Origin: Patescibacteria group bacterium
GTDB taxonomy: Bacteria > Patescibacteriota > Patescibacteriia > 2-12-FULL-60-25
Direction of reading: 5' to 3'
DNA length: 64,000 nucleotides
Assembly (NCBI GenBank): GCA_041665165.1
Contig: JBAYJJ010000001.1
Coordinates: 7,210 to 71,209, forward strand
Every line of letters begins with the position of its first letter. Positions within the stretch are counted from its first letter, which is position 1. Below the pieces are notes generated by a model. The model made no database searches, was not told the origin of the DNA, and saw only the letters and a list, made by a program, of their open reading frames with translations. Below, piece by piece: positions 10,953 to 61,298 of this stretch. Position numbers and translations under genes: made by a program.

Positions 10953-11954
10953 TTAGACGTTTTTCAGCACAATGTCAACAATTTTCAGGATAGTGCTTTC
11001 AGTGATTTCTTGGTGGCAAGGCAAACCGACGCATACCCGATAGTCAGGCTTAAGCATGTTCTGTCGAATGTCAAAATGGTAAAGCCCTGTTTCAATGCCG
11101 CTGGCCTTCAATTTATCAACTACACGTTTGGCTGAGCTGGGCTTCAGGAACAAAGGCATGGCCCAAGGCAAGACATCATCAACATATAAGGAGTGCACGT
11201 CGAACCGGGCAAAAGCCGACCTTAAAAGTTCATAATTTCTTTTCCGCTTCGCCAGCGCCCCTTCGTTCAAGCCTTGGCGTACGATGTTCAGCGATATCCC
11301 TGGGCAAGGAAACAGCCTGTCATAAATCGCGTAGTTCCTCTCGAGTTCGATGCTGTTTTCATGAGTGGAATTCTTTTCGCATAAGAATCTGCGCAAAAAA
11401 ACTTGTTTGGACAGTTTGTCTTCGTGTATTTTTAATTTATCAGCCACAAATCTTTTCAATGCCCTGTTTCTTGTCCAGATAGCGCCTCCGACCACGCTTG
11501 GGAAAAATTTAGCCAAGCTGAAGATTGAAGCGTCCCCCAGCGTGCCCAACCTCTGGTCTTGATAGTTGCTGAAAGCCGCGTGCGCGCAATCTTCTATGCA
11601 GAACAGATTCTTATCCGAACAGAATGCCTTAATGGCTTTCATGTCCTGCGGAAAGCCCCATTGGTGATAGACCAGGATGCCTTTCACTTTTTTATTGAAA
11701 ACCGTGGTCGGGAAACAATGCTTATGCATGGTCATGTACACCCAATAGCCTATCCATTCCGGGACTAAAACCTGCTCTGACTTATCTTTCAAGCGGCCTA
11801 TGCTCCGATAATATTGGAGCAAAATGGCCAGCGCTGACTTTCCGGAAAATGTATACAAGATATCCTTGTCGAGCCCGGCCCCAAAAATGTTGCCTGACAA
11901 GCGGGGCTTGATGGGTTTTATGGCCACTGGAAAAGGGTTGAAATTTATCCTCAT
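10953..11954 (-). CDS. Divergent DegT-like PLP enzyme (fold type I)
   Basis: 333 aa. ILVYHQWGFPQDMKAIKAF...FCIEDCAHA...GTLGDASIFSLAKFFPSVVGGAIWT follows the DegT pattern (vh..G.p.dm, iEDaAhA, fSf..K). It is shorter than canonical members. Confidence 0.55.
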   Translation of the reverse strand: MRINFNPFPVAIKPIKPRLSGNIFGAGLDKDILYTFSGKSALAILLQYYRSIGRLKDKSEQVLVPEWIGYWVYMTMHKHCFPTTVFNKKVKGILVYHQWGFPQDMKAIKAFCSDKNLFCIEDCAHAAFSNYQDQRLGTLGDASIFSLAKFFPSVVGGAIWTRNRALKRFVADKLKIHEDKLSKQVFLRRFLCEKNSTHENSIELERNYAIYDRLFPCPGISLNIVRQGLNEGALAKRKRNYELLRSAFARFDVHSLYVDDVLPWAMPLFLKPSSAKRVVDKLKASGIETGLYHFDIRQNMLKPDYRVCVGLPCHQEITESTILKIVDIVLKNV

Positions 11955-13075
11955 ATTTGCTCAGGCATCGAAAACAACAAAGCGTTATCAACGAACTGGC
12001 CTGTTTTCTGTTTTAATTCGGCTCTCATGGCACCATTGTCCAAATACCCCATCCATTTTATTTTTGGCAAAAACATGCCCCCGTACCGCTCCTTGAAAAC
12101 GCTGATGGAAAGCTCCTTTGCGCTGGGAACATGATAAAGCTGGGGCGTAAAATACCTCTCGCCGATTTCATAGTATTTGAAACCTTTTTGTTTGTAATAC
12201 AGTATCGCTTCCCATTCCAACAAATGCCGTGGTGAATACTCTTTCTCGAATTCATCCAAATTGATTTGGGACCAGCCAAAGGCCATGCAATCGAATTCGC
12301 CGCAATACAAAAAACTGATTGCCTCGTCTTTCAGGTATGTTACGAACAGCGTGGCCTTGCCCTGGCGCATGCCGTCAAGCATGGAATCCCACGTCGCTTG
12401 CGGCCTGGTCATGCGGCCAGCCGACTTGATGTGCGTATCTTCGAAAATCTTGAAGATCCGATCGATTTGGTCCGCGTTGTTCTCTCTATTGAATACACGG
12501 ACCGCTAAGCCCTTTTTGTAACCGCGCTTTATATGCCTCAAATGGTACTTGCTCACATCCGCGCTCAAGTCCTCGATTTTCTTTTCCAGATCAACAGCGA
12601 TTGTGTTCTCGACCTCATAAATCAGGTTGTAGCGGAGCAGCTCGAACGTCGCGGGCTGGATGACTCCTCCCTCGTGCATAAACAGAGTGTTTAACGGATC
12701 CCAAAAAAAAGAAACTTCACTCGCCTTGTTTTCTTTGGCGAAGGCAAGGATTTCCGAAATAATGTTGTCCAGTATTTTCTTACGGTCTTGCCTGGGCATA
12801 GGCGCTACCACCGGCACGCCGCAAGGAGCATGGCCGAACGAAATAGAATGCACGCCCCTGTCTTTCAGATAACTGGACGCCAAGCTACAGATGGCGAGCG
12901 GCTTGCCTGTATGGTCGATGAACGCGAAAGAAGCGTTTTTTTCCACTTCCTCGAATTTCGAAAAATAGTCCAGCAGAGCCGCGGAATGAAAATGACAAGA
13001 ACCTGGCACGTTCAGCACCCAGGCATCCCACTCTTTTGCCGAAACATCAGAAAAAAGTACTTTTTTATACTCCAT
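11951..13075 (-). CDS. FemAB-like / BioF2-like GNAT-fold acyl(aminoacyl)transferase
   Basis: 374 aa with an ATGA overlap onto the next gene. The layout is W..W....HF.....L, then YHLRHIKRGYKKGL, then ATLFVTYLKDEAISFLYCGE....SPRHLLEWEAILYYKQKGFKYYEIGE. This is typical of the FemX/FemAB fold. Confidence 0.6.
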   Translation of the reverse strand: MEYKKVLFSDVSAKEWDAWVLNVPGSCHFHSAALLDYFSKFEEVEKNASFAFIDHTGKPLAICSLASSYLKDRGVHSISFGHAPCGVPVVAPMPRQDRKKILDNIISEILAFAKENKASEVSFFWDPLNTLFMHEGGVIQPATFELLRYNLIYEVENTIAVDLEKKIEDLSADVSKYHLRHIKRGYKKGLAVRVFNRENNADQIDRIFKIFEDTHIKSAGRMTRPQATWDSMLDGMRQGKATLFVTYLKDEAISFLYCGEFDCMAFGWSQINLDEFEKEYSPRHLLEWEAILYYKQKGFKYYEIGERYFTPQLYHVPSAKELSISVFKERYGGMFLPKIKWMGYLDNGAMRAELKQKTGQFVDNALLFSMPEQI

Positions 13076-30442: not shown

Positions 30443-30456
30443 GACTGTTGCCAATT

Positions 30457-31953
30457 ATGCCTTTTCAGGACATAATGCCAAAAGATATGACCATCCTCAT
30501 CACTGGCGGAGCCGGCGCTTTAGGGTCTTACCTAGTCCGCAAATACCTGGCCGAAGGGCACAGGGTTATTTGTTTGGACAATCTGATGAAAACGCGGAAT
30601 ACGGAAAATATCGATGCATTCATGCACGACAAGAACTTCACGTTCATCAAACACGACATAAACGACAAAATAGACTTCTCGGAAAAAATCGATTGGATTT
30701 TCAATGCCGCTTGCCCGGTCTCGTGCATTTCTCTGCAGATCGATCCGATCCACACGGTCCAATCCTGCACAACCGGGGTAATCAACATGCTTGAGCTGGC
30801 GCGCAAGCACAACGCAAAGTTTTTGCAATGCTCTTCGGCTGATATTTATGGCGAGATGGGCGACCATCCGTTCAAGGAGACTGACCGCGGCTCAACCAAT
30901 ACCCTCTCCCCTCGCGCCTGTTATGAAGAGGGAAAAAGAATTGCCGAGACTCTTTGCATGGATTTCCACCGCAAATACGGAGTGGAAATCAAGATCGCAC
31001 GCATCTTCAACACTGCTGGTCCGCACACGCAGATGACGGACGGCCGCATACCTTCGATTTTCATCTACAATGCCTTGGCTCAACGCCCGCTCAGGATCTA
31101 TGGCGATGGAACACAAACACGCTGCTTTCAGCATGTAGAAGATTTGGTTGAGGGCATGGATAAATTCATGAAGACATCAGCTGACGTGACCGGCCCGATC
31201 AATATCGGCAACACGCAAGAAATCACAGTACTGGAGCTGGCCAAAAAGATAGTCGAAAAGACCAGATCAAAATCAGAGATAATCTTCGATCGTGCGGACG
31301 ATGCTCCGAAATTGCGCAAGCCTGACACGTCATTGGCCAAATCTGTTTTGAATTGGGAGCCAAAAAAATCTTTGGATGAATTATTGGATGACATGATTGC
31401 GCACTACAGGTCAAAAGGCCTGCCCGAAAGCACAGTGCTGGTTTTCGCGGTCACCTATTACCCGAACAACGGCCCAGCAGAAAATGCGCTCATGGCTTTG
31501 GCGCGTCAAATGCCAGAAACAGAGTTCCATGTCGTGACTACGCGCTTCAGCCGTGACAACCGCGCATTTGATCATTACGACAATGTCACGGTCTACCGCG
31601 TTGGCTTTGGCTCGCCTTTTGACAGGTTTTTGCTGCCGATTTTGGGCGCAATCAAAGCCAGAAGCCTTAACCGCAAATACCATTACCGTTTCATGTGGTC
31701 TATCATGGCCAGCTATGGCGCACTGATAGGGTTATTTTTAAAACTCCTGGGCAACAAAGCTTCGTTCATCCTCATGCACGATGACAGCGAAAAAATCTCA
31801 GGCTGGCGCAAAAAATTGGCAAACTATATTGAGAAGCGCTCAGACTCTGTGGTAGACAAGGCGCTCGAGACCGACATTTTTATCCATAAAATCCGCGAAA
31901 CATATCACGAGCTGACCGCCAAACAGGAAGGCAAATTACTGAGGCCACTGTAA
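30457..31953 (+). CDS. UDP-glucuronate decarboxylase-like SDR fused to a GT4 N-terminal-type half domain
   Basis: The track start at 30448 is a TTG; ATGs occur at 30457, 30475 and 30487 (MTILITGGAG). The SDR part has GGAGALGS and YEEGKR (YxxxK) with a UXS-like overall pattern. The last ~180 aa (VLVFAVTYYPNNGPAEN...HVVTTR...) resemble only the N-terminal half of a GT-B enzyme. Confidence 0.7.
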   Translation: MPFQDIMPKDMTILITGGAGALGSYLVRKYLAEGHRVICLDNLMKTRNTENIDAFMHDKNFTFIKHDINDKIDFSEKIDWIFNAACPVSCISLQIDPIHTVQSCTTGVINMLELARKHNAKFLQCSSADIYGEMGDHPFKETDRGSTNTLSPRACYEEGKRIAETLCMDFHRKYGVEIKIARIFNTAGPHTQMTDGRIPSIFIYNALAQRPLRIYGDGTQTRCFQHVEDLVEGMDKFMKTSADVTGPINIGNTQEITVLELAKKIVEKTRSKSEIIFDRADDAPKLRKPDTSLAKSVLNWEPKKSLDELLDDMIAHYRSKGLPESTVLVFAVTYYPNNGPAENALMALARQMPETEFHVVTTRFSRDNRAFDHYDNVTVYRVGFGSPFDRFLLPILGAIKARSLNRKYHYRFMWSIMASYGALIGLFLKLLGNKASFILMHDDSEKISGWRKKLANYIEKRSDSVVDKALETDIFIHKIRETYHELTAKQEGKLLRPL

Positions 31954-31965
31954 TTTAGATTTAAT

Positions 31966-32041
31966 CCTCTTCGCTTCTCCTTTTTGTAATTAATCAGTCA
32001 GTCCAGCTTTCAATTAATTAGGAAAGGAGACTTTAACGCAC
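31966..32041 (-). repeat. Repeat family B, copy 3 (reverse orientation, with an insert in the loop)
   Basis: CCTCTTCGCTTCTCCTTT (31966-31983) and AAAGGAGACTTTAACGCAC (32024-32041) are reverse complements of the two ends of the core GTACGTTAAAGTCTCCTT..AAAGGAGAAGCGAAGAGG found at 57385-57420 and 58268-58306. The two ends are separated by a 40-nt AT-rich palindromic insert. Confidence 0.6.
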
Positions 32042-47647: not shown

Positions 47648-47774
47648 AAACTACTTAAAAAAATGACACAGCTTTCCAAAGCTCCCCTCTTGACAAAGGA
47701 GCCAAATTACTGGTAAGAAGCTCTCACTAGAGATGAAGGAGCGATCCTTCGACAACTCAAACAGGAGGTTGGTG

Positions 47775-49694
47775 ATGCGACGTCAGAATGCGATTCGGTA
47801 CATGTTGTTGGGAGGGATCGTTCTTGCGGGATCGATCGACACCGGGTGCCAAGGGAGCTACGACCACAAGGAGCAGTACAGCCAGGTGCAACAGGCCTTG
47901 TCCTGCGCACCGGGTGTTTTCACCCACGGATGTACCTACGAGCAGCAGAACGAGACTTGCTATTTCGACGGCAAGCCCCTCGTCTGCGCGAACTGCATCT
48001 GGTGGGACCAAGCAGCTCTGACCAAGAGCGGTGGGCACATCCCCGATAATTCCAAATGCCAGCCCAGCGAAGCTGGTGCCGGTGGAACGTCCACGGGCGG
48101 GACTGGTGGAAACCAGGACGCCTCGGCTGGCTCTGGAGGTACGTCTGTCGGAGGAACGGGCGGAACCTCAACCGGAGGCACGGGTGGTACCGACCAGGAT
48201 GCGGCAGCTGGAAGCGCAGGAACCGGTGGAACCGTTTGCTCCTGCACACCAGGAACCAAGTTCGGTCCGTGCGAAGGTGATGGCTGGCAGTACTGTCTTG
48301 CGGACTGCATCAACCTGACCGCTTGTCTCCACACTGGAGCAGGAGGCTCGGGCGGCAGCTCGACCGGCGGCGCAGCAGGCAGCGGCGCTGGCGGGACCAC
48401 GACTGGCGGCAACGCGGGCGCAGCAACCGGAGGCACGGCTGGTGTCGGCGGAACTTCCACAGGTGGATCGTCCGGAACCGGAGGCACAGCAACCGGCGGA
48501 AGCGCAGGTGCAGCTGGTGCTTTGACTGGCGGATCTGGCGGCACGGCTGGCACGGGCGGAACCTCTACCGGAGGAACTGCAGGCCAGGCTGGTGTGGCTG
48601 GAAGTGCGGGGTCCTCGACCGGAGGCACGAACGCTGGCGGCGCTGGCGGGACCACGACTGGCGGCAGTGCAGGCGCAGCAGGTGCTTTGACCGGTGGATC
48701 TGGCGGCACGAGCGCAGGCGGAAGCGCAGGCGCAGCTGGCACGGGCGGAACGTCAGGAGATTGCAAGGGTGGCCAGGAATGCGCCACGTATTCCTTCCCC
48801 CCGGACTACAGCTGCAAGGAAACACTGCCTCAAGAGCCAGGATCAGACGCCGGACTGGAAGTCGTGACGTTCGGCTGCGTCTGTGGCTGGGTTATGTCGA
48901 TCGACGCCATCCCGTACATGGTCTGCCAAGATGGCGGAGCAGGAGGCTCGGGCGGCACCGGAGGCACTTCGTCGACCGGCGGAAGCGCTGGCGCAGCTGG
49001 TGCTTTGACCGGCGGCGCAGGCGGAACGACAGCCGGTGGTTCAGGTGGCACGAGCACGGGTGGCACGGCAGGCAATGCCGGTTCATCCACTGGTGGCACG
49101 TCGGCCGGAGGTGCAGGCGGATCTGGCGGTGTTCTGCCGGACGCAGGTTCCTCGCTCAAGAATCCCGAATTCCTGACCGACCCATGCGTGGACGCGGATC
49201 GCGCGATCTCGCCGACCACGCTCCCCGCAATCGGACTCTGGCTCCAATACCAGGCGCCGATCAAGCTACCGGACACGCTGCTCGGCGAGTACGACTGGAC
49301 CAACTACACTACGCCAGGGTACACGGATACCAAGTGGCAGATTCGAACAGCCACTTCCTCGACCGCGGCCACGAGCATCTTCGCCCTGCTCATCAACACC
49401 CCGGGCCTGTCCTATGACCGCTGGTTCATGGTCAAGCAGATCGACCCTCTGTCCACGCAGGATTGCCTGTTCTACAACAGCGACGGGTACTACTGCAACT
49501 ACTCACCGGATGCCACGCAGACCGGAACCCTGTTCTGCTCTGGCACCTGGACCCTGTGGCTGGACAATGTCCAGGTCACGACCTACACGGATGCGGCAGG
49601 TGTGACACCCGCTCTGCCCTTCGTCAAAACCTTCACGTTCAAGGATGGAAATTGGGCGCCCAAGATCGGCGTCCGTCTCCCCCTCGCTACGTGA
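47775..49694 (+). CDS. Secreted Gly/Thr/Ser/Ala-repeat protein with Cys-rich modules (possible lipoprotein)
   Basis: The ATG at 47775 is preceded by AGGAGG with a 6-nt spacing; the track start at 47733 lacks a ribosome-binding site. It has the signal-like MRRQNAIRYMLLGGIVLAGSIDTGC, then four GGTSTGG/GGSAGAAGALTGG tracts separating Cys-containing modules. It is very G+C-rich. Confidence 0.7.
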   Translation: MRRQNAIRYMLLGGIVLAGSIDTGCQGSYDHKEQYSQVQQALSCAPGVFTHGCTYEQQNETCYFDGKPLVCANCIWWDQAALTKSGGHIPDNSKCQPSEAGAGGTSTGGTGGNQDASAGSGGTSVGGTGGTSTGGTGGTDQDAAAGSAGTGGTVCSCTPGTKFGPCEGDGWQYCLADCINLTACLHTGAGGSGGSSTGGAAGSGAGGTTTGGNAGAATGGTAGVGGTSTGGSSGTGGTATGGSAGAAGALTGGSGGTAGTGGTSTGGTAGQAGVAGSAGSSTGGTNAGGAGGTTTGGSAGAAGALTGGSGGTSAGGSAGAAGTGGTSGDCKGGQECATYSFPPDYSCKETLPQEPGSDAGLEVVTFGCVCGWVMSIDAIPYMVCQDGGAGGSGGTGGTSSTGGSAGAAGALTGGAGGTTAGGSGGTSTGGTAGNAGSSTGGTSAGGAGGSGGVLPDAGSSLKNPEFLTDPCVDADRAISPTTLPAIGLWLQYQAPIKLPDTLLGEYDWTNYTTPGYTDTKWQIRTATSSTAATSIFALLINTPGLSYDRWFMVKQIDPLSTQDCLFYNSDGYYCNYSPDATQTGTLFCSGTWTLWLDNVQVTTYTDAAGVTPALPFVKTFTFKDGNWAPKIGVRLPLAT

Positions 49695-49982: not shown

Positions 49983-50216
49983 TCAAATCACCTTCTTTGT
50001 TCTTGACCAGCGCTTTATTTGCTTCTCACGTTCAATTACTGCCATGACATCATTGCCAACTTCAAAATAAACTAGGCGATCACATCCATATTTTTTAGTA
50101 AAACCAGGAACAGCATGCATTCTATGTTCTGCGATACGCCTATTTAGATCATTAGTCATCCCGACATACAAAGTACCCGAAGGAGATGACGTGATATAGA
50201 TAAAATAATCCTTCAT
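49983..50216 (-). CDS. Small GIY-YIG nuclease-family protein
   Basis: The ATG at 50216 gives MKDYFIYITSSPSGTLYVGMTNDLNRRIAEHRMHAVPGFTKKYGCDRLVYFE...AIEREKQIKRWSRTKK, a classic GIY...YVG...R..EH...E.K motif series. The upstream part of the track ORF is read through repeat A and was discarded. Confidence 0.8.
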   Translation of the reverse strand: MKDYFIYITSSPSGTLYVGMTNDLNRRIAEHRMHAVPGFTKKYGCDRLVYFEVGNDVMAVIEREKQIKRWSRTKKVI

Positions 50217-50244
50217 ATAATTAGAATAAACAAAATTTGCATTC

Positions 50245-50428
50245 TTGTCATTTCGAGCGAAACGAAGTGAAGTCGAGAAATCTCCGAATCCAACGTTACC
50301 AAGTAACTTCAGTTTCCGAGATCTCTCGACTGACGCTCGAGATGACAAAAGGGGGTACAGTCGAGATGACAAGGGGAGGAAATAGTCAAGATGACAAAGC
50401 AGGCGGGGAACCAACTAGCAGCCTGTGG
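50245..50428 (-). repeat. Repeat family A, copy 2 (longest copy)
   Basis: Its reverse complement reads CCACAGGCTGCTAGTTGGTTCCCC...TTGTCATCTTGAC...TTGTCATCTCGAC...TTTGTCATCTCGAGCG...GAGAGATCTCGGAAACTGAAGTTACTTGGTAACGTTGGATTCGGAGATTTCTCGAC...CGCTCGAAATGACAAG. Confidence 0.75.
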
Positions 50429-50550
50429 TTATCAAACCGTCCCATTATCAAGGGGACAGCTTTGATGCCCGCATCAAAGCAGGGGATCTTCGGGTATAAA
50501 AAGAGGGCGCGCACAGAGTCGTACGCGCCCAAAGGAAGTTAACTAAGCTT

Positions 50551-52422
50551 TCACCAGTCAGTCACACCGTTGCAGTTCGCATCCGGGCCGCCGACCAAGT
50601 CAGTCGCACCAGGGTGCGTGTCACCGCTCAGGTCATTACAATCGTGAGGAAGAACGAAACCGTCCGTGTCCCAGTCCGTGGCGCCAGAAGCCTGGACCAT
50701 GACCCTGAGATTGCATCCATTGTGCTGGTTGTTCCATACGCCCTGCACTTCGGGAGTGGCATACTTGTTGCCGTTCTTCTCGATGTAGCAGGCGAATTCG
50801 AACTGCAGTTGGGAAGGATTGTCCCACTGACAGCCAGCATACTGCCAGATGTTATTGCTCGGCGGGTCGCGGTAGGTGCTGAACAAGAACTCGTCGTTCT
50901 CCTTGGGGTTCTGCACCGTGAACGTGCCCCACACAGCATTGTATGTTGGCACGGTCTGCGAGCCAGCGCCCCACAGCACGGCATAGTAGTCGTGCTTGGC
51001 AACGTCCGGCAGAAACACGCGGTAGAAGCACACGAGCTTGGTTGCGCTCGGCGTGCCGCAGCCTTCGTCGATCTGCCCGTCGCAATCGTTGTCCTTGCCA
51101 TCGCAGAGCTCAGTCGCGGCTGGCTGATTTCCGTTGGGGCCAAAGATGTTTGCATCGTTGTCGTTGCAATCACCCTGGGCCACGGTCCTGCCGTCGCCAT
51201 CCTTGTCCTGCGAAACGCTGCAGCCTTCGTCCGTCTGGCCGTTGCAGTTGTCGTCGACTCCGTTGCACTGTTCGGCCGCGCCGGGATTGACATCCGACTT
51301 GGTGTCGTCGCAGTCGCCAATCTTGAGGACGTAGCCCTGAGGCTGAAGGTTGGTATACTGCCAGATCGAGCTGACACCATACCCGTCTCCGTCAACATCC
51401 CTGTACCACATCTGTGGCGGAACGCCGCAGCCTTCGTCAACCAACCCGTTGCAGTCATTGTCTTTGCCATCGCAGGACTCGTACGAAACCCCGGGGTTCA
51501 TCGCCGGGTCGTTGTCGTTGCAGTCGCCCTGGGCCACGGTGAAACCGTCACCATCCTTGTCCTGCGAGACACTGCAGCCTTCGTCAATCTGGTTGTTGCA
51601 GTTGTCGTCGACTCCGTTGCAGAGCTCGACGGCCTTGGGATGGACGCTGGCGTTGTTATCGTCGCAATCGTCGTTGCCAGTAATCCAGTTTACGTAGCCC
51701 GGGAGCCACGCGTCGCAGGGGCTGACGAACAAGTAATCGTTCGGGTCCCCGTAGCCATCGCCGTCCTTGTCGTGCAAACGCCGTTCCTTGGTGTTGCAGG
51801 AGTTCCATCCGCCTGTGCCGCCAGTTCCGGATGATCCGCCTTGCGCGGTTCCACCGGTTCCGGACGATCCACCCGTGGGAGTTCCGCCAACACCAGCTGA
51901 ACCTCCTTGCGAGGTCCCTGCTGTGCCGCCAGTCGAGCTTCCGCCCGTGGAAGTTCCGCCGACGCCACTCGATCCTCCTTGTGAGGATCCTCCAGTTGAC
52001 GAGCCTCCAGTCGAGCTTCCGCCCTGACTCGAACCGCCGGCGCCGCCGGCAGACGTGCCGCCGGTTCCACTGGACCCGCCTGTGGAGGGCTGGCCTGACC
52101 CACCCGCACCGGATGTTCCGGCATCGGGCTGGGTGCAATCGCAAGCGCCGTACGTGTTCTGCGCGTTGCAGACCTGAACGCCCTTGAGGCCTCCAGCGCA
52201 ATCACAGACGATCTGCTGTCCCTGCACGCACTTTGCAGGTGTTCCAGCTGATCCGCCTTGTGCGGTTCCGCCGACACCGGACGAGCCTCCGATTGAGGTG
52301 CCGGCGCTTCCTGCACTGCCTGCAGCAGCCGGAAACTCGGCTTCGTCGCCACTGGTGTCGATGCCGCATCCGACTGCAAGAACCGAAAGCACAACCACGG
52401 ACAATGCCTTGATATTTCTCAT
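50551..52422 (-). CDS. Lipoprotein with a Gly/Ser/Thr linker and five MopE-like putative metal-binding motif repeats
   Basis: 623 aa. Has the lipobox MRNIKALSVVVLSVLAVGC and a GGSSGTGGT linker. Repeats follow the pattern D(K/V)DGDG..........DC(D/N)D......PG..E.C(N/D)G.D(D/N)(N/D)C(N/D)G..DEGC, for example DCDDNNASVHPKAVELCNGVDDNCNNQIDEGC. Confidence 0.75.
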   Translation of the reverse strand: MRNIKALSVVVLSVLAVGCGIDTSGDEAEFPAAAGSAGSAGTSIGGSSGVGGTAQGGSAGTPAKCVQGQQIVCDCAGGLKGVQVCNAQNTYGACDCTQPDAGTSGAGGSGQPSTGGSSGTGGTSAGGAGGSSQGGSSTGGSSTGGSSQGGSSGVGGTSTGGSSTGGTAGTSQGGSAGVGGTPTGGSSGTGGTAQGGSSGTGGTGGWNSCNTKERRLHDKDGDGYGDPNDYLFVSPCDAWLPGYVNWITGNDDCDDNNASVHPKAVELCNGVDDNCNNQIDEGCSVSQDKDGDGFTVAQGDCNDNDPAMNPGVSYESCDGKDNDCNGLVDEGCGVPPQMWYRDVDGDGYGVSSIWQYTNLQPQGYVLKIGDCDDTKSDVNPGAAEQCNGVDDNCNGQTDEGCSVSQDKDGDGRTVAQGDCNDNDANIFGPNGNQPAATELCDGKDNDCDGQIDEGCGTPSATKLVCFYRVFLPDVAKHDYYAVLWGAGSQTVPTYNAVWGTFTVQNPKENDEFLFSTYRDPPSNNIWQYAGCQWDNPSQLQFEFACYIEKNGNKYATPEVQGVWNNQHNGCNLRVMVQASGATDWDTDGFVLPHDCNDLSGDTHPGATDLVGGPDANCNGVTDW

Positions 52423-55034: not shown

Positions 55035-55126
55035 GTCAACATTATAACATACCCCCTCTATCCGTCCCTCTATTTACTATACTGCGGGACTGCCTTTCCC
55101 CCCGCCGCAGGGGAAAGGCTGGTTAA

Positions 55127-55155
55127 CCAGAGGCGGCTAGTTGGTTCCCCTCCTC
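55127..55155 (+). repeat. Repeat family A, terminal fragment (copy 4)
   Basis: CCAGAGGCGGCTAGTTGGTTCCCCTCCTC matches the outer end of copies 1-3. It is flanked by the hairpins CCTTTCCCC..GGGGAAAGG and CCTCCTC-AACT-GAGGAG. Confidence 0.55.
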
Positions 55156-55217: not shown

Positions 55218-56015
55218 CTAGGATTTGACCGTGATGTAGCCGTGCGGCTTGAGCCAGCGTTCGGTCACGATTGCGTGATTGATGAGGCCGATGATGCCGC
55301 CGGCCAGCGCGCCAATGATGGCATGGTGTGCCATGTAACCAATGGCCGTGCCAAGCATGGCATCCACTCCGCAGATCAAACGCTTCTCCGAATGGATGCG
55401 GATGAACATCTGCCAGGCAAAGCGTTTGCAGAAACGGGCGAGCCCACCCACGGCCCAGGCTATGCTCATGCAAATAGCAATGGCTGCGCCAGGCAATTTG
55501 CGAGCAAACCAGACCAGTGCGCGCGGAATGTGCCAAAAAACCACGACCGGAGGGAAAGTGGCAATTGCGATTTTCCGTACCTTGGGCCAATCATCTTTCA
55601 TGTCCTCATGGACTGTGCTCACAAACAACATCACTGTGAAGATGCACGCGGAAATGGAGAAGGGCAAGATGATGAGGACCTTGAATAAGGGCGACGTATA
55701 TGAAAGGGGCAGTGACTTGAAAATCATTTCAGATGCACACAGGATGGACACCCAAAACATAAAGTTCCAAGTCAAGACGCCCAGCCCAAATGATATCGCG
55801 AAGCCAGGTCTTGGCAGACGGGCTTTTATTGCTGCGCGGAAAGCGTGCGGCACAGCTTGGACCACAGCCTTCCACTCGTATGAGAGATAGCCGACGATTC
55901 CGCCGACCAGCAAACCCACCCACCAGAACCAGTGGCTGAGCTGGAGCGCGACAAGCGACCCGATCCCGGCGCCGAATGCACAAGCCAAAAACACCTTCCA
56001 AGACTCTTTCTGCAT
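55218..56015 (-). CDS. Multi-pass membrane protein of unknown function
   Basis: 265 aa with about 7 hydrophobic segments. The ribosome-binding site AAGGAGGA lies 6 nt upstream of the ATG. No family was recognised. Confidence 0.6.
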   Translation of the reverse strand: MQKESWKVFLACAFGAGIGSLVALQLSHWFWWVGLLVGGIVGYLSYEWKAVVQAVPHAFRAAIKARLPRPGFAISFGLGVLTWNFMFWVSILCASEMIFKSLPLSYTSPLFKVLIILPFSISACIFTVMLFVSTVHEDMKDDWPKVRKIAIATFPPVVVFWHIPRALVWFARKLPGAAIAICMSIAWAVGGLARFCKRFAWQMFIRIHSEKRLICGVDAMLGTAIGYMAHHAIIGALAGGIIGLINHAIVTERWLKPHGYITVKS

Positions 56016-56100
56016 GGCGATCCTCCTTGAGTTGTAGGTACGAAATCAGGAGTATTTAGACTGAAAACAGAAGGGAAGTCAAGTCTGAAACCTGTCCCCA

Positions 56101-56243
56101 CCACAGGCTGCTAGCTAGTTCCACTCCTTTTGTCATCTCGACTGCAGCGGAGCGAAATGGAGAGATCTCGGAAACAGAAGTTACCTGGCCACGTTAGATT
56201 CGGAGATTTCTCGATTACGTCTGACTTCACTCGAAAAGACAGG
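56101..56243 (+). repeat. Repeat family A, copy 3
   Basis: CCACAGGCTGCTAGCTAGTTCC...TTTTGTCATCTCGAC...GAGAGATCTCGGAAACAGAAGTTACCTGGCCACGTTAGATTCGGAGATTTCTCGAT...CACTCGAAAAGACAGG is colinear with the reverse complement of copy 2. Confidence 0.75.
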
Positions 56244-56254
56244 AATGAGGGGCT

Positions 56255-57262
56255 CTATGAATTTCCAAGTATGCTTCTCTTGTAGGACTCGAGGTTCTCA
56301 AGCGCAATGCCTGTGCCTTTGGCCACGCAATATTGGGGCTCATCAGCTACGAAGGCTGGGATGCCTGTGGCCTCGGAAACAATGCGATCAAGATTCCTAA
56401 GTTGAGCTGAGCCACCAGAGAGCACCACGCCCTTTTCCATGACATCAGCCGAAAGCTCTGGCGGCGTGTTGCGCAAAACTTCTTTCATGGTATCGATAAT
56501 GCCTTGGAGCTCATGCTGGATGGCGTCTGTAATATCATCGGAATTGATGCCGACTGTGCGCGGCAAACCAGTGATCATGTCGCGGCCCTTCACATCCATT
56601 TCCAGTTTGTTCTCCAAATACAAGGCTGAGCCGATGCGGATCTTGGCATCTTCAGATGTGCGTTCGCCAATGGCCAAACCATACTTGCGGCGCACATGCT
56701 CTTGGATGGCCAAGTCCATTTTATTGCCTCCAATCCTGACTGAGGCTGAAGAGACAATGCCGCCCAAAGAAATCACAGCGATTTCTGATGTGCCGCCGCC
56801 AATATCTGTAATCATGTGGCCGGACGGTGATCCGATCGGTATATCAGCGCCAATAGCTGCGACGATTGGTTCTTTGATGATATAGGCTGCGCGCGCTCCA
56901 GCCGCGATGGTCGCGTCAATGACAGCGCGGCGTTCAGTTGATGTGATGCCGCCTGGCACTGCGACCATGACCTCGGGGCGGAAAAACCTGACACTGCCCA
57001 AAGCCTTGTTAAGAAAATACCGAAGCATGGCCTCGGTGGTGTGATAGTCGGCGATTACTCCGTCTTTGAGCGGGCGGCGTGCGACAATAGTGTCTGGCGT
57101 GCGCCCAAGCATGTCTTTTGCTTCCTTGCCCACGGCCAGCACGCGCTTGTCAGCCAAAGATATGGCAACAACCGAGGGCTCGTTCATCACAATGCCCTTT
57201 TTCGGGATATAGACCAAAACGGTCGTTGTCCCCAGGTCAATCGCCACCTTTTTGCCAAACAT
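56255..57262 (-). CDS. mreB: Rod shape-determining actin homologue MreB
   Basis: 335 aa. VAIDLGTTTVLVY, NEPSVVA, VMVAVPGGITSTERRAV, ITDIGGGTSEIAVISLGGIV and VLSGGSAQLRNLD form the canonical MreB motif series. Confidence 0.9.
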   Translation of the reverse strand: MFGKKVAIDLGTTTVLVYIPKKGIVMNEPSVVAISLADKRVLAVGKEAKDMLGRTPDTIVARRPLKDGVIADYHTTEAMLRYFLNKALGSVRFFRPEVMVAVPGGITSTERRAVIDATIAAGARAAYIIKEPIVAAIGADIPIGSPSGHMITDIGGGTSEIAVISLGGIVSSASVRIGGNKMDLAIQEHVRRKYGLAIGERTSEDAKIRIGSALYLENKLEMDVKGRDMITGLPRTVGINSDDITDAIQHELQGIIDTMKEVLRNTPPELSADVMEKGVVLSGGSAQLRNLDRIVSEATGIPAFVADEPQYCVAKGTGIALENLESYKRSILGNS

Positions 57263-57317
57263 AACGGCCTCATCTCACCATCTAAACAACCGCCTGGCAA
57301 GACGCTTTATTAACACA

Positions 57318-57428
57318 GAAAACCCTTGGCCCCTTTCTCAAGGGGCTGTGACCCTGCATGTTAAAACTTTATTGATTAGCCAGTACGTAAAAATCTCCTT
57401 GTGAAAGGAGAAGCGAAGAGGTTTTCCG
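57318..57428 (+). repeat. Repeat family B, copy 1
   Basis: GAAAACCC..GCCCCTTTCTCAAGGGGC...GTACGTAAAAATCTCCTTGTGAAAGGAGAAGCGAAGAGGTTTTCCG. It is a direct repeat of 58228-58313 with a ~27-nt indel. Confidence 0.75.
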
Positions 57429-57509
57429 AGTCTTGCGTATTAAAATAACCCCGCAGTTGACGCAAATCCAAGTTTCGGATTTTTGCATCAAACGGGGGTG
57501 AGAGAATGC

Positions 57510-58094
57510 CTAGGCCGCGAGCTCTTCCTCTTTGCGGACACAGAGGAACCGGTCGTTGCCATGCCAGTCACTGTCGAACCAAACCAGGCGGAGGCGCTGG
57601 CCAGCGCCATCGCTCCACAGACACGCGACATTGCGGTGACCGTCAACGTCCGTCTCGGAGCCGAGAGCGACCATCGGAAACTTTATCTTTTCCTCGGGGT
57701 ACTTGGCATCAAGTGCGAGAAGCTCCTCGGGCAGTGCGGACCGGAGACCGCGCTTATCAATCTCAGCCAGCACTTCCTCATAGGATGCGTTACGATTCAT
57801 GCAGACGTACTCGAACTCAACTTCGCGCGTCTCTCGGATGACATTCTCACAGGCCTTGATAGGTTTGAAAGCGATGCCGTCATAGGCCTGGTTGACGTAG
57901 TCCGGGAACCGGCGCTTCAGCTCGTCCATAGCCGGAATGGCGTAGACGACCAAGGCGACGAACTTTTCGGGTTGCCCTACATCCTCCAGCGCAATCCTCT
58001 TGGTTCGGCTGAGTACAGCATCTACTGCTGTCTCACCGCCGATCATATTGAAAACTGCTTCTACCTGACCAAGCGTATACTTTCCATACTTCAT
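57510..58094 (-). CDS. Hypothetical protein (G+C-rich single gene between direct repeats)
   Basis: 194 aa. The ribosome-binding site AAGGAG lies 6 nt upstream of the ATG, and the gene has its own consensus promoter. A hand count on 57541-57600 gives 38/60 G+C. No family was recognised (C-terminal ...WFDSDWHGNDRFLCVRK). Confidence 0.6.
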   Translation of the reverse strand: MKYGKYTLGQVEAVFNMIGGETAVDAVLSRTKRIALEDVGQPEKFVALVVYAIPAMDELKRRFPDYVNQAYDGIAFKPIKACENVIRETREVEFEYVCMNRNASYEEVLAEIDKRGLRSALPEELLALDAKYPEEKIKFPMVALGSETDVDGHRNVACLWSDGAGQRLRLVWFDSDWHGNDRFLCVRKEEELAA

Positions 58095-58182
58095 GGCGCG
58101 CTCCTTTTGGGCTGAAAGCCCATCCGGTCTTTACCCTTGCCCGGGGTCCAGGGCTCTCGACATAGGTGTAAAGAGCAGTGTT

Positions 58183-58211
58183 TGTATAGCAAAAAAAGGA
58201 CGGGGTGTCAA
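58183..58211 (-). promoter_or_regulatory. Sigma70-type promoter of the 57510-58094 gene
   Basis: On the minus strand: TTGACA (58211-58206), an exact 17-nt spacer, then TATACA (58188-58183). Confidence 0.55.
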
Positions 58212-58227
58212 GTGTAGCTATACCCCC

Positions 58228-58313
58228 GAAAACCCCGCAAGCCCCTTTCTCAAGGGGCAGCTTACTTGTACGTTAAAGTCTCCTTGAGAAAGGAGAAGCG
58301 AAGAGGTTTTCCG
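58228..58313 (+). repeat. Repeat family B, copy 2
   Basis: GAAAACCCCGCAAGCCCCTTTCTCAAGGGGCAGCTTACTTGTACGTTAAAGTCTCCTTGAGAAAGGAGAAGCGAAGAGGTTTTCCG. Confidence 0.75.
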
Positions 58314-58317
58314 TTTT

Positions 58318-60420
58318 CTAGTACTGCACTTCAAACATTCTGTCTTCCAGCGTATCAATTCTATATTCGTAGGCGTTATCTCCCCACTTGGCTTCTGCTT
58401 CGGCTGGGTCTGCTTTTTTGACTGTTGTCGGTAAAATTATTTTGACATCAATCTGAGTGTTGTCTGCGCCCGGTTGCTTGGGCCAATCAAGACGATAGTC
58501 GCCGCTCGTAACGTCCAGCGGCGGAAGTTGATAGGTAAAAGATAATTGACCGCTTTTGCCTGGTTCTATGGCCCAAAAAGCACCGTAGACTGTTTTGCCC
58601 AGCTCTTTCATGACATCTACTTTGCCTGCGACGAAGTTGCCGCCCGTGTTATGCAAATCATCGGCCATGGCGCCTTTGGCTGAAACAAAGGTGCTGCCAT
58701 CAGGTACATAAATGCGTGTGTAACTGCGATAGCGCGTATATCTCCAAGTGGATTGCTTGTTTGTATTCTTATAATTGAATGTGACGGTCGCTACTGGCTT
58801 TTGCGGATCGCGCGCATCCAAAACATATGAGACTGACTTTTGCATTACGCCATCAGTCTTAAGCGCCGCGAGATTCGCATCCACCACCCACAAGAAATCA
58901 CCAAGCGTTGGCTTAGCGCGCCCGCTCCAGCCATATTGATCCAGTTTTTTCTCAACATCCGCATTGCGCGAGTAGATGAGAATCTGCTTGCGGTTCAATG
59001 ACGTGGTCACAAGATCCAATAGCTCTGGCCAGCGCGACTTGGGCATATTTTGGATTTTGGCCATTATGGCCTGACCCACTTCGCCCATAAGCACCTTCCT
59101 ATCTTCGACTGAAATGCCTTGCTTGCCAAAACCGATTTCTACCTGATACTGCAAAGTATCAAAAAAGTTCTGGTCATTATATTCCTGGCCGCGGACATTT
59201 ACCGGCCCGGTTATCTTGAGTAGGGCTTCAAAAAACGCCGGCTCAAAAGCAACATAAACCGTTGGCTCAGAAATCTTGTTTCCAGCCAAGATGTTTTCTC
59301 TGGTATAAAAATCCAATACTTTATCGGCTGAAGTCGGGAAATCCGGCGACCAATTCGCATCGCGCATAAACCAAACTTTTGCCTTGAGATAATCCTGCAA
59401 AGGTTTCGGCGGAATTTCTTTCCAAGTTTGCGCTACTGGATTATCAACTTGATACACATCTGAAAAAACCATGTTCGTCATGTCCCCGCCTGTAACCTTG
59501 GCCGTGAACAAACTTCCGATAAAACCGCCCGAAGGGCGAATCTCGTCCGCATTCTGCAAAGCCACAAGATAATCTTGAGCATCTGGATAGCCAGCCAAAG
59601 GCACCATGACGTCGATCAAAGGAACGGCCTGGGTCAATGATTTTTGCATCACTGGCAAAGCATCAGCCAGTGGTTTCAAAGCTTGCTTGATGGGACCGGC
59701 GATCTGATTTTGCGGCAAAGCATTCCACAACCTGTAGGCCAAATCCATTTTGTCCCTGGCAAGCCTGATGTCTGGCAATGAATTGTATAAAACCCGAAGC
59801 AAGCTTAGTTTATTTTCCGGAGTCAGATCTTTCAGCCTGTCGCTGGGCGAAATCGGCACGCCGAGGCTATTGACTGCCTGCTGGCCAGTTGAAGCTGCAT
59901 CAAAAATCGCTGAAGCGACCTTAAGCAAATCCTCCATGCCTTCCATTGAATCCGCACTCACGACCGAGGCATCCTGCAGAATGCGCAACTGCGACCCTAT
60001 ATATGGGACATCTCTCCAAAAGCCCATGCCATTCAAAGCGACCTCCATGTTATTGAGTTCAAGTTTTGCCTTGGCCGAATACGCTTGGGCAGTGGCCATG
60101 TCCCCGGCCAGCAAAGCTGTCTGCATGTTAGAAAGCGCGACTCGGGCATTGTTGGCTGCCAAGCCAGCTTTAGCCAAAGCTATTCCCGGAGGCACGGTTG
60201 CAATCCCCAGCGCTATCACTAAAAACGCGACCACTATCCAAAAAAGCTTACGCTTCTTCCGCGGATTCGTAGCTCGTAGCTCGTAGCTCGTAGCTCGGTC
60301 TTTGTTTGTCGGCTGTGGTCTGTCGTCTGTGGTCTTAGTGTCGCGAAAAGCGTCCGCTTTGTGTGGCGGTTCGAGCTCGGGCACTCCCGGGCAAGTTAAA
60401 AAATTTGGATGCTCTTTCAT
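58318..60420 (-). CDS. DUF4012-type membrane-anchored protein
   Basis: The ATG at 60420 overlaps the upstream TAA by 1 nt (TAATG); the track start at 60540 overlaps 120 nt. It has one TM segment (LFWIVVAFLVIALGIATV) and then ...AKAGLAANNARVALSNMQTALLAGDMATAQAY..., typical of DUF4012. The N-terminal tail is encoded by a heptamer array. Confidence 0.7.
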   Translation of the reverse strand: MKEHPNFLTCPGVPELEPPHKADAFRDTKTTDDRPQPTNKDRATSYELRATNPRKKRKLFWIVVAFLVIALGIATVPPGIALAKAGLAANNARVALSNMQTALLAGDMATAQAYSAKAKLELNNMEVALNGMGFWRDVPYIGSQLRILQDASVVSADSMEGMEDLLKVASAIFDAASTGQQAVNSLGVPISPSDRLKDLTPENKLSLLRVLYNSLPDIRLARDKMDLAYRLWNALPQNQIAGPIKQALKPLADALPVMQKSLTQAVPLIDVMVPLAGYPDAQDYLVALQNADEIRPSGGFIGSLFTAKVTGGDMTNMVFSDVYQVDNPVAQTWKEIPPKPLQDYLKAKVWFMRDANWSPDFPTSADKVLDFYTRENILAGNKISEPTVYVAFEPAFFEALLKITGPVNVRGQEYNDQNFFDTLQYQVEIGFGKQGISVEDRKVLMGEVGQAIMAKIQNMPKSRWPELLDLVTTSLNRKQILIYSRNADVEKKLDQYGWSGRAKPTLGDFLWVVDANLAALKTDGVMQKSVSYVLDARDPQKPVATVTFNYKNTNKQSTWRYTRYRSYTRIYVPDGSTFVSAKGAMADDLHNTGGNFVAGKVDVMKELGKTVYGAFWAIEPGKSGQLSFTYQLPPLDVTSGDYRLDWPKQPGADNTQIDVKIILPTTVKKADPAEAEAKWGDNAYEYRIDTLEDRMFEVQY
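60267..60336. repeat. Heptamer array, 10 units, inside the DUF4012 coding sequence
   Basis: TCGTAGC x4 (perfect), then TCGGTCT TTGTTTG TCGGCTG TGGTCTG TCGTCTG TGGTCTT. On the coding strand the first block is (AGCTACG)n, the same unit as at 34138. It encodes ...TTDDRPQPTNKDRATSYELRATN.... Confidence 0.85.
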
Positions 60421-61298
60421 TAATCGATCGGACGAACGTGGGAATGCGGGTTTTTGGTCCCGCGGTACTTCCAGAAATAGTATACCGCACTTAAGATGTG
60501 TGCGCGCGCCGGCTTGTGGGTAATAAGGTGCCACGGCCAATCAATGGCACTTTCTCTTTGATGGTAATGAACAAGTTTGGCAGATGGCACATGCACCACT
60601 CTCCAGTTATAAACCCATGCCCTGCGGCAGATATCCAGCTCTTCCATGTACATGAAAAACTTTTCATCGAACACGCCAACTTCTTCCAAAGCTTTGCGCC
60701 TGATCATGATAGCCGAACCCATCATGGCATCCACTTCCAAAGGCTTTTGCTCGGACAAGACATCGCGCATGAAATAATGATGCAGATATCTTTTACCGGC
60801 CGATGTCTTACCCAAGATGGTGCGGCGGTAAAACGGCATCATGACTGTCGGGAATCTGTAGCAGGATTCTTGGCGCGTGCTATCCGGGTTATACAAAGCT
60901 GGGCCTGCCATTCCCACATCCGGGTGCGCATCCATAAACTCAACCAACTTCTCCATCTCGCCCGGAAAAATAGTGAGATCCGGATTGACTAGCATCACAT
61001 ACTCTCCCCTAGCTTGCCTTAAGGCCAGATTATTGCCCGCGCCAAAACCAACATTCCTGACAGAATCAATGACCTTGACCCACGAAAATCTTTCTTTGAC
61101 CATCTTGCCTGTGCCATCACCAACTGCGTTGTCCACCAAAAAATATTCAAAAGAAAAATCAAACTTAGCAGCCTCGGCGCCTTTGAGCAGCATACGGATA
61201 AGGCCCGGAGTGCGGAAGCAAACCGTAACAAAAGAAACTTTAGGATCAGGACCCCGCAACGGCTGTTGCGGGACTGAATTTTGGTTTATTTCGTTCAT
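60420..61298 (-). CDS. GT2 glycosyltransferase
   Basis: The track start at 61307 is a TTG; the ATG at 61298 forms an ATGA overlap with the upstream stop. Motifs are VSFVTVCFRT...YFLVDNAVGDGT...NVGFGAGNN...VMLVNPD (DxD). Confidence 0.8.
   Translation of the reverse strand: MNEINQNSVPQQPLRGPDPKVSFVTVCFRTPGLIRMLLKGAEAAKFDFSFEYFLVDNAVGDGTGKMVKERFSWVKVIDSVRNVGFGAGNNLALRQARGEYVMLVNPDLTIFPGEMEKLVEFMDAHPDVGMAGPALYNPDSTRQESCYRFPTVMMPFYRRTILGKTSAGKRYLHHYFMRDVLSEQKPLEVDAMMGSAIMIRRKALEEVGVFDEKFFMYMEELDICRRAWVYNWRVVHVPSAKLVHYHQRESAIDWPWHLITHKPARAHILSAVYYFWKYRGTKNPHSHVRPID

Follow-up and report, generated by a model that had tools for sequence, protein, structure and literature searches.

An accessory gene of a retroelement-linked protein family between two copies of a dispersed palindromic repeat beside mreB in a Patescibacteria genome

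Two direct repeats around a single gene invite the question of whether the gene moves with them. The question is raised by a 64,000-nucleotide stretch of a Patescibacteria group bacterium (GenBank assembly GCA_041665165.1, contig JBAYJJ010000001.1, positions 7,210 to 71,209 of the forward strand), called here the window, in which a gene for a 194-residue protein, orf194, lies between two copies of a palindromic repeat, R, in the slot between a DUF4012 gene and mreB. A sequence-only reading of the window had proposed that the gene is a small mobile or recombination-delivered cassette. The present analysis favours another answer: two independent things are probably superimposed here, a dispersed R family and a self-contained accessory unit that carries orf194. 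R forms a new family within a kind of element that is already known, and orf194 likewise adds a new member to a known kind of protein. The earlier observation was largely correct and is partly confirmed, and its interpretation as a mobile cassette is partly supported: orf194 does form an accessory unit, self-contained and specific to its lineage, in a variable slot, but the repeats are not cassette boundaries.

The bracketing itself is borne out, the two direct repeats lying within 2 nt of the bounds first proposed. The single enclosed open reading frame (ORF), the TTGACA-17-TATACA promoter, the AAGGAG ribosome-binding site and the downstream hairpin named in that reading are all present as well, and are conserved in four lineages. 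In gene sense, the order is DUF4012 stop, 4 nt, R copy B, promoter, 88-nt leader, coding sequence (CDS), terminator-like hairpin, R copy A, 53 nt and mreB. The features of the slot are listed below, where L followed by a number denotes a locus compared with the window.

58318-60540, minus strand: DUF4012 gene, with its stop codon at 58318-58320.
58226-58313, minus strand: R copy B, 88 nt, palindromic and intergenic, beginning 4 nt past the DUF4012 stop.
58183-58211, minus strand: promoter of orf194, made of TTGACA (58211-58206), a 17-nt spacer and TATACA (58188-58183).
58095-58182, minus strand: 5' leader of orf194, 88 nt, with the ribosome-binding site AAGGAG at 58106-58101.
57510-58094, minus strand: orf194, 194 aa, the sole ORF between R copies A and B.
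57981-58094, minus strand: codons 1-38 of orf194, an N-terminal module (MKYGKYTLGQVEAVFNMIGGETAVDAVL..) that recurs in the 184-aa gene of the L026 slot, which is different in the rest of its length.
57510-57980, minus strand: body of orf194, codons 39-194 and stop, a domain of about 150 aa whose family is large and uncharacterised and whose predicted fold is C-type-lectin-like; L026 has this segment replaced.
57531-57656, minus strand: segment of orf194 (ETDVDGHRNVACLWSDGAGQRLRLVWFDSDWHGNDRFLCVRK) homologous to the variable repeat of a diversity-generating retroelement.
57441-57503, minus strand: 3' hairpin/terminator of orf194, a nested hairpin CCCCCGtttgatGCAAAAATCCgaaacttGGATTTGCgtcaactgCGGGG and then TTATTTT, retained in L026, L074 and L075.
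57316-57428, minus strand: R copy A, 113 nt, of another subfamily than B, 81 nt past the orf194 stop and 53 nt ahead of the mreB start.
56255-57262, minus strand: mreB, 53 nt past R copy A.

Are the two repeats a matched pair? The 18-mer AAAGGAGAAGCGAAGAGG occurs three times in the window against 0.08 expected, and none of 100 shuffles reaches three; the repeats are thus real and not a chance match. The hairpins first described, GCCCCTTTCTCAAGGGGC and TCTCCTT..AAGGAGA, are present in both A and B. On the minus strand, copy B consists in order of the 5' arm of helix P1 (CGGAAAACC), CTCTTCGC, the hairpin TTCTCCTTtctcAAGGAGA, the stretch CTTTAACGTAC, the hairpin GCCCCTTgagaAAGGGGC and the 3' arm of P1 (GGGGTTTTCGG); its ortholog in L026 is 96.6% identical. 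Copy A carries an extra 27 nt in mid-element after ACGTAC and has the 3' end GCCCCTTGAGAAAGGGGCCAAGGGTTTTC. The two agree at 72 of 87 comparable positions (83%) and hold only rank 10-11 of 21 in each other's order of similarity. Each has 9-10 closer relatives at other loci, namely L047b, L071 and L068 at 93% as the nearest relatives of A (all on Ga0172379 contigs) and a best non-orthologous match of 88.5% for B. On these comparisons, A and B are best read as two separate insertions of different subfamilies and not as mutual duplicates. Their adjacency is not strongly non-random, as three copies dropped randomly into 46 spacers place two of them in adjacent spacers with a chance of about 0.13. 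Searches with nhmmer, using models of each half, found no R copies in the window beyond A, B and the following one.

31960-32041, plus strand: R copy C, of the TTTAATCC subfamily; it has the 5' module only, lacks a 3' module, and carries an insert of 39 nt within the loop of its hairpin.

Copy C begins 7 nt past the stop of a 501-aa epimerase-domain gene (30448-31953), and a hairpin with a T-run resembling the own terminator of orf248 lies between it and orf248. The same subtype is found at the non-orthologous sites L019, L029 and L051. A third copy had been linked to another G+C-rich orphan gene; the copy is real, but it lies on the opposite strand, has only the 5' module and begins next to the end of the epimerase-domain gene.

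Beyond the window, R proves to be widely dispersed, with more than 40 copies across three related genome sources. The exact 18-mer gave 17 matches when one genome per species was scanned, ten of them in the metagenome-assembled genome (MAG) CAZPAP01, which carries at least 11 R copies. A metagenome scan gave 45 loci with about 22 true copies, essentially all from one sample, Ga0172379; the other 18-mer matches lack the rest of the element and are as many as expected by chance. Altogether 34 distinct copies, plus further diverged ones, were parsed within 2-21-kb loci around the matches. They sit at non-orthologous sites, and their flanks are not syntenic with the window. Their neighbours are ordinary genes of ordinary composition in either orientation, about 12 of 30 copies being antisense to the upstream gene. 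Housekeeping Pfam domains are carried by 21 of the 30 neighbouring proteins scanned; among these 21 are class I/II aminoacyl-tRNA synthetases, ornithine carbamoyltransferase, a XerC/D-like recombinase, RNase J, RodA, RseP, EngA, MurG and Dus, and one copy sits between ftsA and ftsZ. By the standard that the earlier reading had set for itself, this speaks against a cassette: R is a widespread intergenic element of the REP/MITE type discussed below, mostly next to housekeeping genes. Additionally, two further copies lie beside tRNA-like sequence, as judged by eye.

All copies follow one plan of about 88-120 nt without an ORF. The 5' arm, GGAAAA, TTTAAT or TTTATT followed by CC, leads into CTCTTCGC; written out, the left arm is this 5' arm with TCTTCGC-TTCTCCTTT.. 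after it. Next come a first hairpin, TTCTCC(T/C)TT-loop-AA(G/A)GGAGA, the almost invariant centre CTTTAACGTAC, and a second hairpin whose letters vary while its pairing is always kept (GCCCCTT..AAGGGGC, CCCTCTT..AAGAGGG, CCCCCTTT..AAAGGGGG). The right arm is a degenerate inverted copy of the left, ..AAAGGGG-..-GGG followed by TTTTCC or GGATTAAA, and its 3' arm complements the 5' arm. Pairing of the ends extends over 8-14 bp, and they take the forms GGAAAACC/GGTTTTCC or TTTAATCC/GGATTAAA. With the two halves inverted in this way and a hairpin of its own in each arm, a single copy folds as a rod or as a Y. These two forms alternate as the minimum-energy structure, and many copies show the rod-like fold. 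Complementarity between the P2 and P3 units extends to their loops, and in L048c CACA pairs with GTGA. Subfamilies of P1 differ by compensatory changes (AAAACC/GGTTTT, TTAATCC/GGATTAA, TTATTCC/GGAATAA). Moreover, the family is a mosaic: inserts of 27 nt (copy A) or of 30-40 nt in the first loop (copy C) are optional, some copies are 5' halves only, L047 and L066 hold nested tandem copies, L058 is a chimera and in L029 two 5' modules form a perfect inverted pair.

In six copies the start coincides with the stop codon of a gene on the same strand or lies within a few nt of it. At L008, L014, L039, L046, L058 and L064, which belong to the TTTAATCC/TTTATTCC subfamilies, the stop of the upstream gene is the TAA in the first bases of the element (5-6 cases). 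Either R inserts at or beside stop codons, or R has replaced the original stop.

With these properties, R is best classed as a mosaic family of palindromes of the miniature inverted-repeat transposable element (MITE) and repetitive extragenic palindrome (REP) or REP-doublet (REPIN) type, dispersed in intergenic DNA of this Patescibacteria lineage. REP, REPIN and bacterial interspersed mosaic elements (BIMEs) of proteobacteria are repetitive extragenic palindromes mobilised by REP-associated tyrosine (RAYT) transposases. Like them, R is a short extragenic palindrome in tens of copies, built from an inverted pair of hairpin units that together form a long hairpin, with mosaic combinations of units and linkers, and its copies, pointing either way, lie between genes that converge or run in the same direction, often right after stop codons. 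It differs in that a RAYT/Y1 transposase is unseen at any R locus, its sequence is unrelated, its copies so far number dozens and not hundreds, its centre (CTTTAACGTAC) is the most conserved part, and its host belongs to the Patescibacteria. A full-text literature search found no description of such palindromic elements in Patescibacteria.

Bacterial MITEs are exemplified by Correia/NEMIS of Neisseria, RUP of pneumococcus and MITEAba12 (PMC6382973). R shares with MITEs a short, non-coding body of about 100 nt, terminal inverted repeats, many non-orthologous intergenic sites per genome, subfamilies, and internal deletions and insertions. Unlike for them, neither a target-site duplication nor a parent insertion sequence has been identified for R, and its outermost pairing bases vary by subfamily while the interior is constant, the reverse of the usual transposase-bound inverted repeat. 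Specifically, no duplication is evident around copies A and B, and none is found at the outer ends of the composite (...TAGAAAAC before B, TGTGTTAA after A); in the TTTAATCC subfamily, a TA/TAA/TTAA duplication is indistinguishable from the inverted repeat itself. No transposase occurs among the 30 R-neighbouring genes scanned in the 2-21-kb loci, nor was a RAYT (Y1 HUH transposase) flanked by R seen in the loci around matches, at which genome coverage is incomplete. Since neither a transposase or RAYT-type gene nor a target-site duplication was found, the mobility of R is inferred from its distribution. An enzyme acting in trans would spread the copies, and recombination and microhomology deletion would erode them.

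Does the gene follow the repeats? Comparison of the slot in related genomes suggests otherwise. In L024, whose MreB is 94% identical, DUF4012 and mreB lie 98 nt apart without gene and without R, and the slot is likewise empty in L025 (MreB 89% identical) and L027 (DUF4012 59% identical). L074 has an ortholog with 58% identity in the slot, with the same promoter (TATATA), leader and terminator, but only the 3' half of R upstream of the gene and a different repeat downstream. The 904-nt contig L075 has a homolog with 69% identity and the same promoter (TAAATA), leader and terminator, and no R. Across the four lineages, promoter and leader align at 89% identity and the terminator core is nearly invariant, whereas the protein is only 58-69% identical, so that the coding region is far less conserved than the sequence ahead of it. 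The leader has no significant predicted fold (z = -0.42). Judged from these alignments, promoter, leader, gene and terminator travel together, independently of R.

The closest relative, L026 (DUF4012 91% identical), adds a further feature. Its frame is kept, namely R, the promoter, the leader, the first ~115 nt of the CDS and the terminator, and ends in an R that has diverged through compensatory changes. The sequence cannot be aligned from around codon 39 up to the stop, and homology resumes just past the stop. The slot gene encodes a 184-aa protein, to which BLASTP aligns residues 1-56 of orf194 only, most strongly over the first ~36. As homology spans R, the promoter and ~115 nt of CDS and resumes after the stop, the breakpoints of the exchange lie inside the gene unit and not in R. 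Homologous recombination on the conserved 5' and 3' modules would account for such a gene-body swap. In this reading, orf194 is a self-contained accessory transcription unit of a sigma-70-type promoter, an 88-nt leader, a CDS and a terminator (~58211 to 57441) in a variable slot. The bracket would then arise because the two non-essential spacers made by the accessory unit each tolerate an R copy.

Two observations accompany these comparisons. At 1310-1350 of L074, the half-R is joined directly to the DUF4012 stop via the heptamer GTACTAG, which is present both at the end of the L074 gene (CAG TAC TAG) and inside R (ACGTACTAG, then GTCAC); this suggests that the 5' half of R was lost there by microhomology deletion. 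Furthermore, contig CAZPAP010000010.1 of MAG GCA_964584725.1, the source of L026 and L007-L023, shows synteny with the window (83-88% DNA identity), and the MAG has repeat families in common with the window. It is titled 'uncultured Gammaproteobacteria bacterium', a taxonomic label that looks wrong.

Composition lends the gene less distinction than first thought. A G+C content of about 63% in a sampled line had been given, which does not hold for the gene: orf194 measures 56.1%, with 67% at third codon positions, in a window of 48.6%. Relative to the 46 window ORFs (mean 48.7%, standard deviation 4.7), it lies about 1.6 standard deviations above the mean, in the upper tail but not as an outlier, and the adjoining mreB has 53%. 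The true outliers of the window are the genes at 47733-49694 (plus strand, 64%) and 50551-52422 (minus strand, 61%). Both have long internal repeats of Gly/Thr/Ser type that are in part mutually reverse-complementary, and the latter carries four MopE-type Cu-binding motifs.

What, then, does orf194 encode? Pfam, NCBIfam and PHROGs hold no significant match for orf194, orf248, orf265 or the L026 184-aa protein, and a PDB sequence search with orf248 returned nothing. The orf194 family profile has a marginal match to one IspH domain (E 8e-4), which is left uninterpreted. The homology search that had been advised for the protein was more rewarding, revealing a large family outside Pfam: a word-indexed search gave 16 relatives, and a profile search of 1.84 billion cluster representatives gave 4152 at E <= 1e-3, 1635 at <= 1e-10 and 110 at <= 1e-30. 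Some members carry two or three copies of the domain, and none of the ten members scanned against Pfam has a domain above its threshold. In the C-terminal 45 residues, a fixed scaffold (ALGSE..V.G.R.VACLW.DG.GR.L.L.W....W....RFLAVRK) holds hypervariable positions in between.

One homolog gives a meaning to this pattern. In L003, the last 136 nt of the homolog P0003 recur 483 nt downstream with 88% identity, and an RVT_1 gene follows. All 20 of the 20 interior mismatches between the two repeats fall at adenines of the template repeat (TR), whose translation is Asn-rich (NVNGNRNVAYLWNDDNGRNLNLDWIDNDWNDNDRFLAVRK). These adenine-only mismatches, the adjoining RVT_1 gene and the Asn-rich template identify the L003 element as a diversity-generating retroelement (DGR) and the orf194 family as its target. 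The DGR is complete:

L003, 10572-10707: variable repeat (VR), in the orf194 homolog that is the target.
L003, 11055-11190: TR.
L003, 11611-12630: reverse transcriptase.

The matching segment of orf194, DVDGHRNVACLWSDGAGQRLRLVWFDSDWHGNDRFLCVRK, differs from the L003 template mainly at Asn codons. The AlphaFold model of orf194 (predicted local distance difference test, pLDDT, 76; predicted template modelling score, pTM, 0.70) has C-type lectin domains as all of its top 50 PDB fold matches, each of them weak (E 0.015-0.17, TM 0.3-0.45), and orf194 thus appears C-type-lectin-like. The C-type-lectin fold is that of known DGR targets, such as Mtd and TvpA, and is also what would be expected of the targets in the CPR (candidate phyla radiation). 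The protein would accordingly combine a 38-residue N-terminal module with a C-type-lectin-like domain of about 150 aa, the last ~40 residues of which are VR-homologous. As in DGR variable proteins, a C-terminal segment of about 40 residues is homologous to a proven VR, and homologs differ at template Asn (AAC) codons. CPR targets of 'clade 2' are reported to be small, modular and without transmembrane or recognisable domains (Roux et al. 2021, PMC8144416). With such targets orf194 shares its small size, the lack of a transmembrane or known domain, and the joining of an N-terminal module to a C-terminal lectin-like domain. It departs from DGR variable proteins in having no TR, Avd or reverse transcriptase within 64 kb and no evidence of current diversification, and in belonging to a domain family without a Pfam model. 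Most likely, orf194 is a ligand-binding protein whose binding face was formerly, or is now, diversified by a DGR elsewhere in the genome; such a DGR may still act on orf194 today. The R copies A and B were also considered as a TR/VR pair, which was rejected because of their intergenic position and because their mismatches (A>T, A>G, T>A) show no specificity for adenine.

Members of the family also occur in series. At 9264-12320 of L006, five to six tandem units of ~610 bp each consist of one orf194-family paralog (149-156 aa) and a spacer. The spacers carry the hairpin GACAGGAAAG..CTTTCCTGTC, and the paralogs differ mostly in the C-terminal variable segment.

Several points weigh against the combined picture of a dispersed repeat and an independent, formerly or currently diversified accessory gene. 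The C-type lectin fold matches are weak, as noted. Neither a TR nor a reverse transcriptase is found in the 64-kb window, in which the best tblastn match to the L003 reverse transcriptase has an E value of 0.89; DGR targets remote from their DGR are known, and this negative leaves room for a DGR elsewhere. The orf194 protein is identical in three same-strain assemblies (DNA 100% identical), which gives no sign of ongoing diversification. For R, the missing transposase or RAYT-type gene and the missing target-site duplication count on the same side. A role of R at the RNA level is conceivable and stays in play owing to the compensatory changes in its helices and the six copies at stop codons. 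Finally, R flanks the slot in two species, that of the window and that of L026, so the bracketing arrangement is old and could be functional.

Could R and the gene have arrived as one? A mobile R-orf194-R unit, brought in by recombination between R copies as a Campbell-type circle integrating into a resident R, or as a MITE-flanked composite, would fit two direct copies around a single gene with its own promoter. The slot is also empty in the more distant L024, L025 and L027 and differs in content between the two closest genomes, and neighbouring slots in the window and in L024 likewise hold one gene between direct repeats, of other families. Such a unit is nevertheless quite improbable, given that A and B are of different subfamilies, that the L026 breakpoints lie in the CDS and just past the stop, that the gene unit is present in L074 and L075 with the R pair missing, that the outer ends lack a target-site duplication, that R lies mostly beside housekeeping genes, and that no recombinase occurs in the window. 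As the sequence-only reading had it, no integrase or transposase is visible: none is found among the 46 window ORFs, which also hold no reverse transcriptase and no Phage_integrase or RVT_1 match. A search for tRNA or tmRNA genes as integration targets found none in the window. A composite of the integron-mobilisation-unit type was rejected, having no outer duplication, with its cargo accompanied by half an R or none in L074 and L075. The locus does resemble integron cassettes in having one ORF between imperfect palindromic direct repeats, but it has no R''/R' core sites and no duplication at the composite ends. The RYYYAAC / GTTRRRY ends of integron attC sites are absent at the ends of R, whose sole GTTAAAG lies in the element centre. 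A cassette array of integron type, in which IntI, attI and Pc stand beside co-oriented and mostly promoterless cassettes, was discarded too, since no IntI occurs among the 46 window ORFs, orf194 has its own promoter and R lies beside housekeeping genes. The L006 array suggests yet another origin, in which the bracket is the remnant of a collapsed tandem array of gene and spacer units of the same protein family with repeated spacers. This is very unlikely: R bears no relation to the L006 spacers and is found at dozens of unrelated loci, A and B belong to different subfamilies, and the sequences between R and gene differ by side, with promoter and leader on one and the terminator on the other.

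The repeats might instead be kept for what they do as RNA. As a selected structured RNA (3'-UTR stabiliser, terminator, insulator or small RNA), R copies would insulate the accessory unit from DUF4012 and mreB, a reading that is rather unlikely. It draws on three helices kept through compensatory changes, with a covariation score of 0.204 against 0.087 in shuffles, and on two near-invariant stretches, CCTCTTCGCTTCTCC (partly within P1 and P2) and CTTTAACGTAC (unpaired in the Y fold). In P3 the loop, GAGA, is a tetraloop of GNRA type, and the copies at stop codons and on both sides of the slot in the window and L026 point the same way. In the hand-registered alignment 91.4% of cells are paired, against 84.4% in shuffles, and 10 pairs are altered on both sides. 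These statistics come from an N-padded alignment registered by hand, since the MAFFT alignment is out of register at the 3' end, and the second hairpin (P3) was located via its hairpin pattern, so the pairing is partly built in. Moreover, the orientation of R is mixed, and half, nested, inverted-pair and chimeric copies are common. The two strands of R fold equally well, with the sense strand more stable in 11 of 22 copies, and an argument for a strand-specific RNA from G-U pairs was dropped for that reason. Rfam has no match at gathering thresholds across the whole window; at E up to 10 over 57250-58350, it returns only microRNA-type hairpin noise and a sub-threshold 'uup' match in the leader. 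There is also some small chance that the conserved frame is a dedicated exchange site, bounded by R, promoter, leader and the 38-codon module on one side and by terminator and R on the other. Bodies of ligand-binding genes would be swapped in it by homologous recombination on the 5' and 3' modules, with the flanking R copies as insulators or portable homology. The body present in the window is lectin-like and of DGR type, and that of the sister species (L026) is unrelated to it. The replacement of a gene body between sister species within a conserved promoter, N-terminal and terminator frame is the one feature of the locus that does not reduce to the ordinary, and its reading as an exchange site has a low probability. 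Superposition of a dispersed R family on an independent accessory unit is the reading retained here.

Comparable arrangements occur around the slot. By domain scans of the 46 ORFs, the window holds mostly envelope-glycan genes, then DUF4012, mreB and glycosyltransferases, and homologs of its genes carry Patescibacteria annotations. A second, unrelated repeat family lies at 55112-55154 and 56100-56247, with inverted copies at 50240-50443, and is also found in CAZPAP01 contigs. It brackets orf265 (55218-56015, no Pfam match, 54.8% G+C) in the variable slot from mreB to a GT4 glycosyltransferase. The occupant of this slot is a 264-aa gene in L026, one for Cu-oxidase_4 in L024 and an opposite-strand 143-aa gene in L027; in L025 the slot is empty. 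In L024, direct repeats of ~95 nt from yet another family (gtcatgccgaac...gatcctgaaacgagttcaggatgac; 11037-11135 and 11896-11990) bracket the Cu-oxidase_4 gene, and a single gene between direct intergenic repeats thus recurs with different families. A small ORF with a GIY-YIG nuclease domain occupies 49986-50414 on the minus strand. Its N-terminal ~60 codons overlap the second repeat family (50240-50443), and its called start is therefore probably too far upstream; a 93-aa GIY-YIG gene lies in the corresponding region of L026.

For the biology of these organisms, the outcome is as follows. A false lead is removed, as the R repeats are not cassette boundaries. An apparently undescribed palindromic intergenic family is documented in a Patescibacteria lineage, which matters for annotation, assembly breaks and recombination in reduced genomes. 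An orphan gene finds its place in a large family without a Pfam model, among whose members is a proven target of retroelement hypermutation. The slot beside mreB provides a case of a gene body replaced inside a conserved promoter and terminator frame. Systematic replacement of this kind, if it occurs, would give organisms that are thought to rely on host attachment a second way of diversifying their binding proteins; and were the frame a true exchange site, ultra-small Patescibacteria would possess a cassette-exchange system for variable binding proteins, layered over DGR hypermutation.

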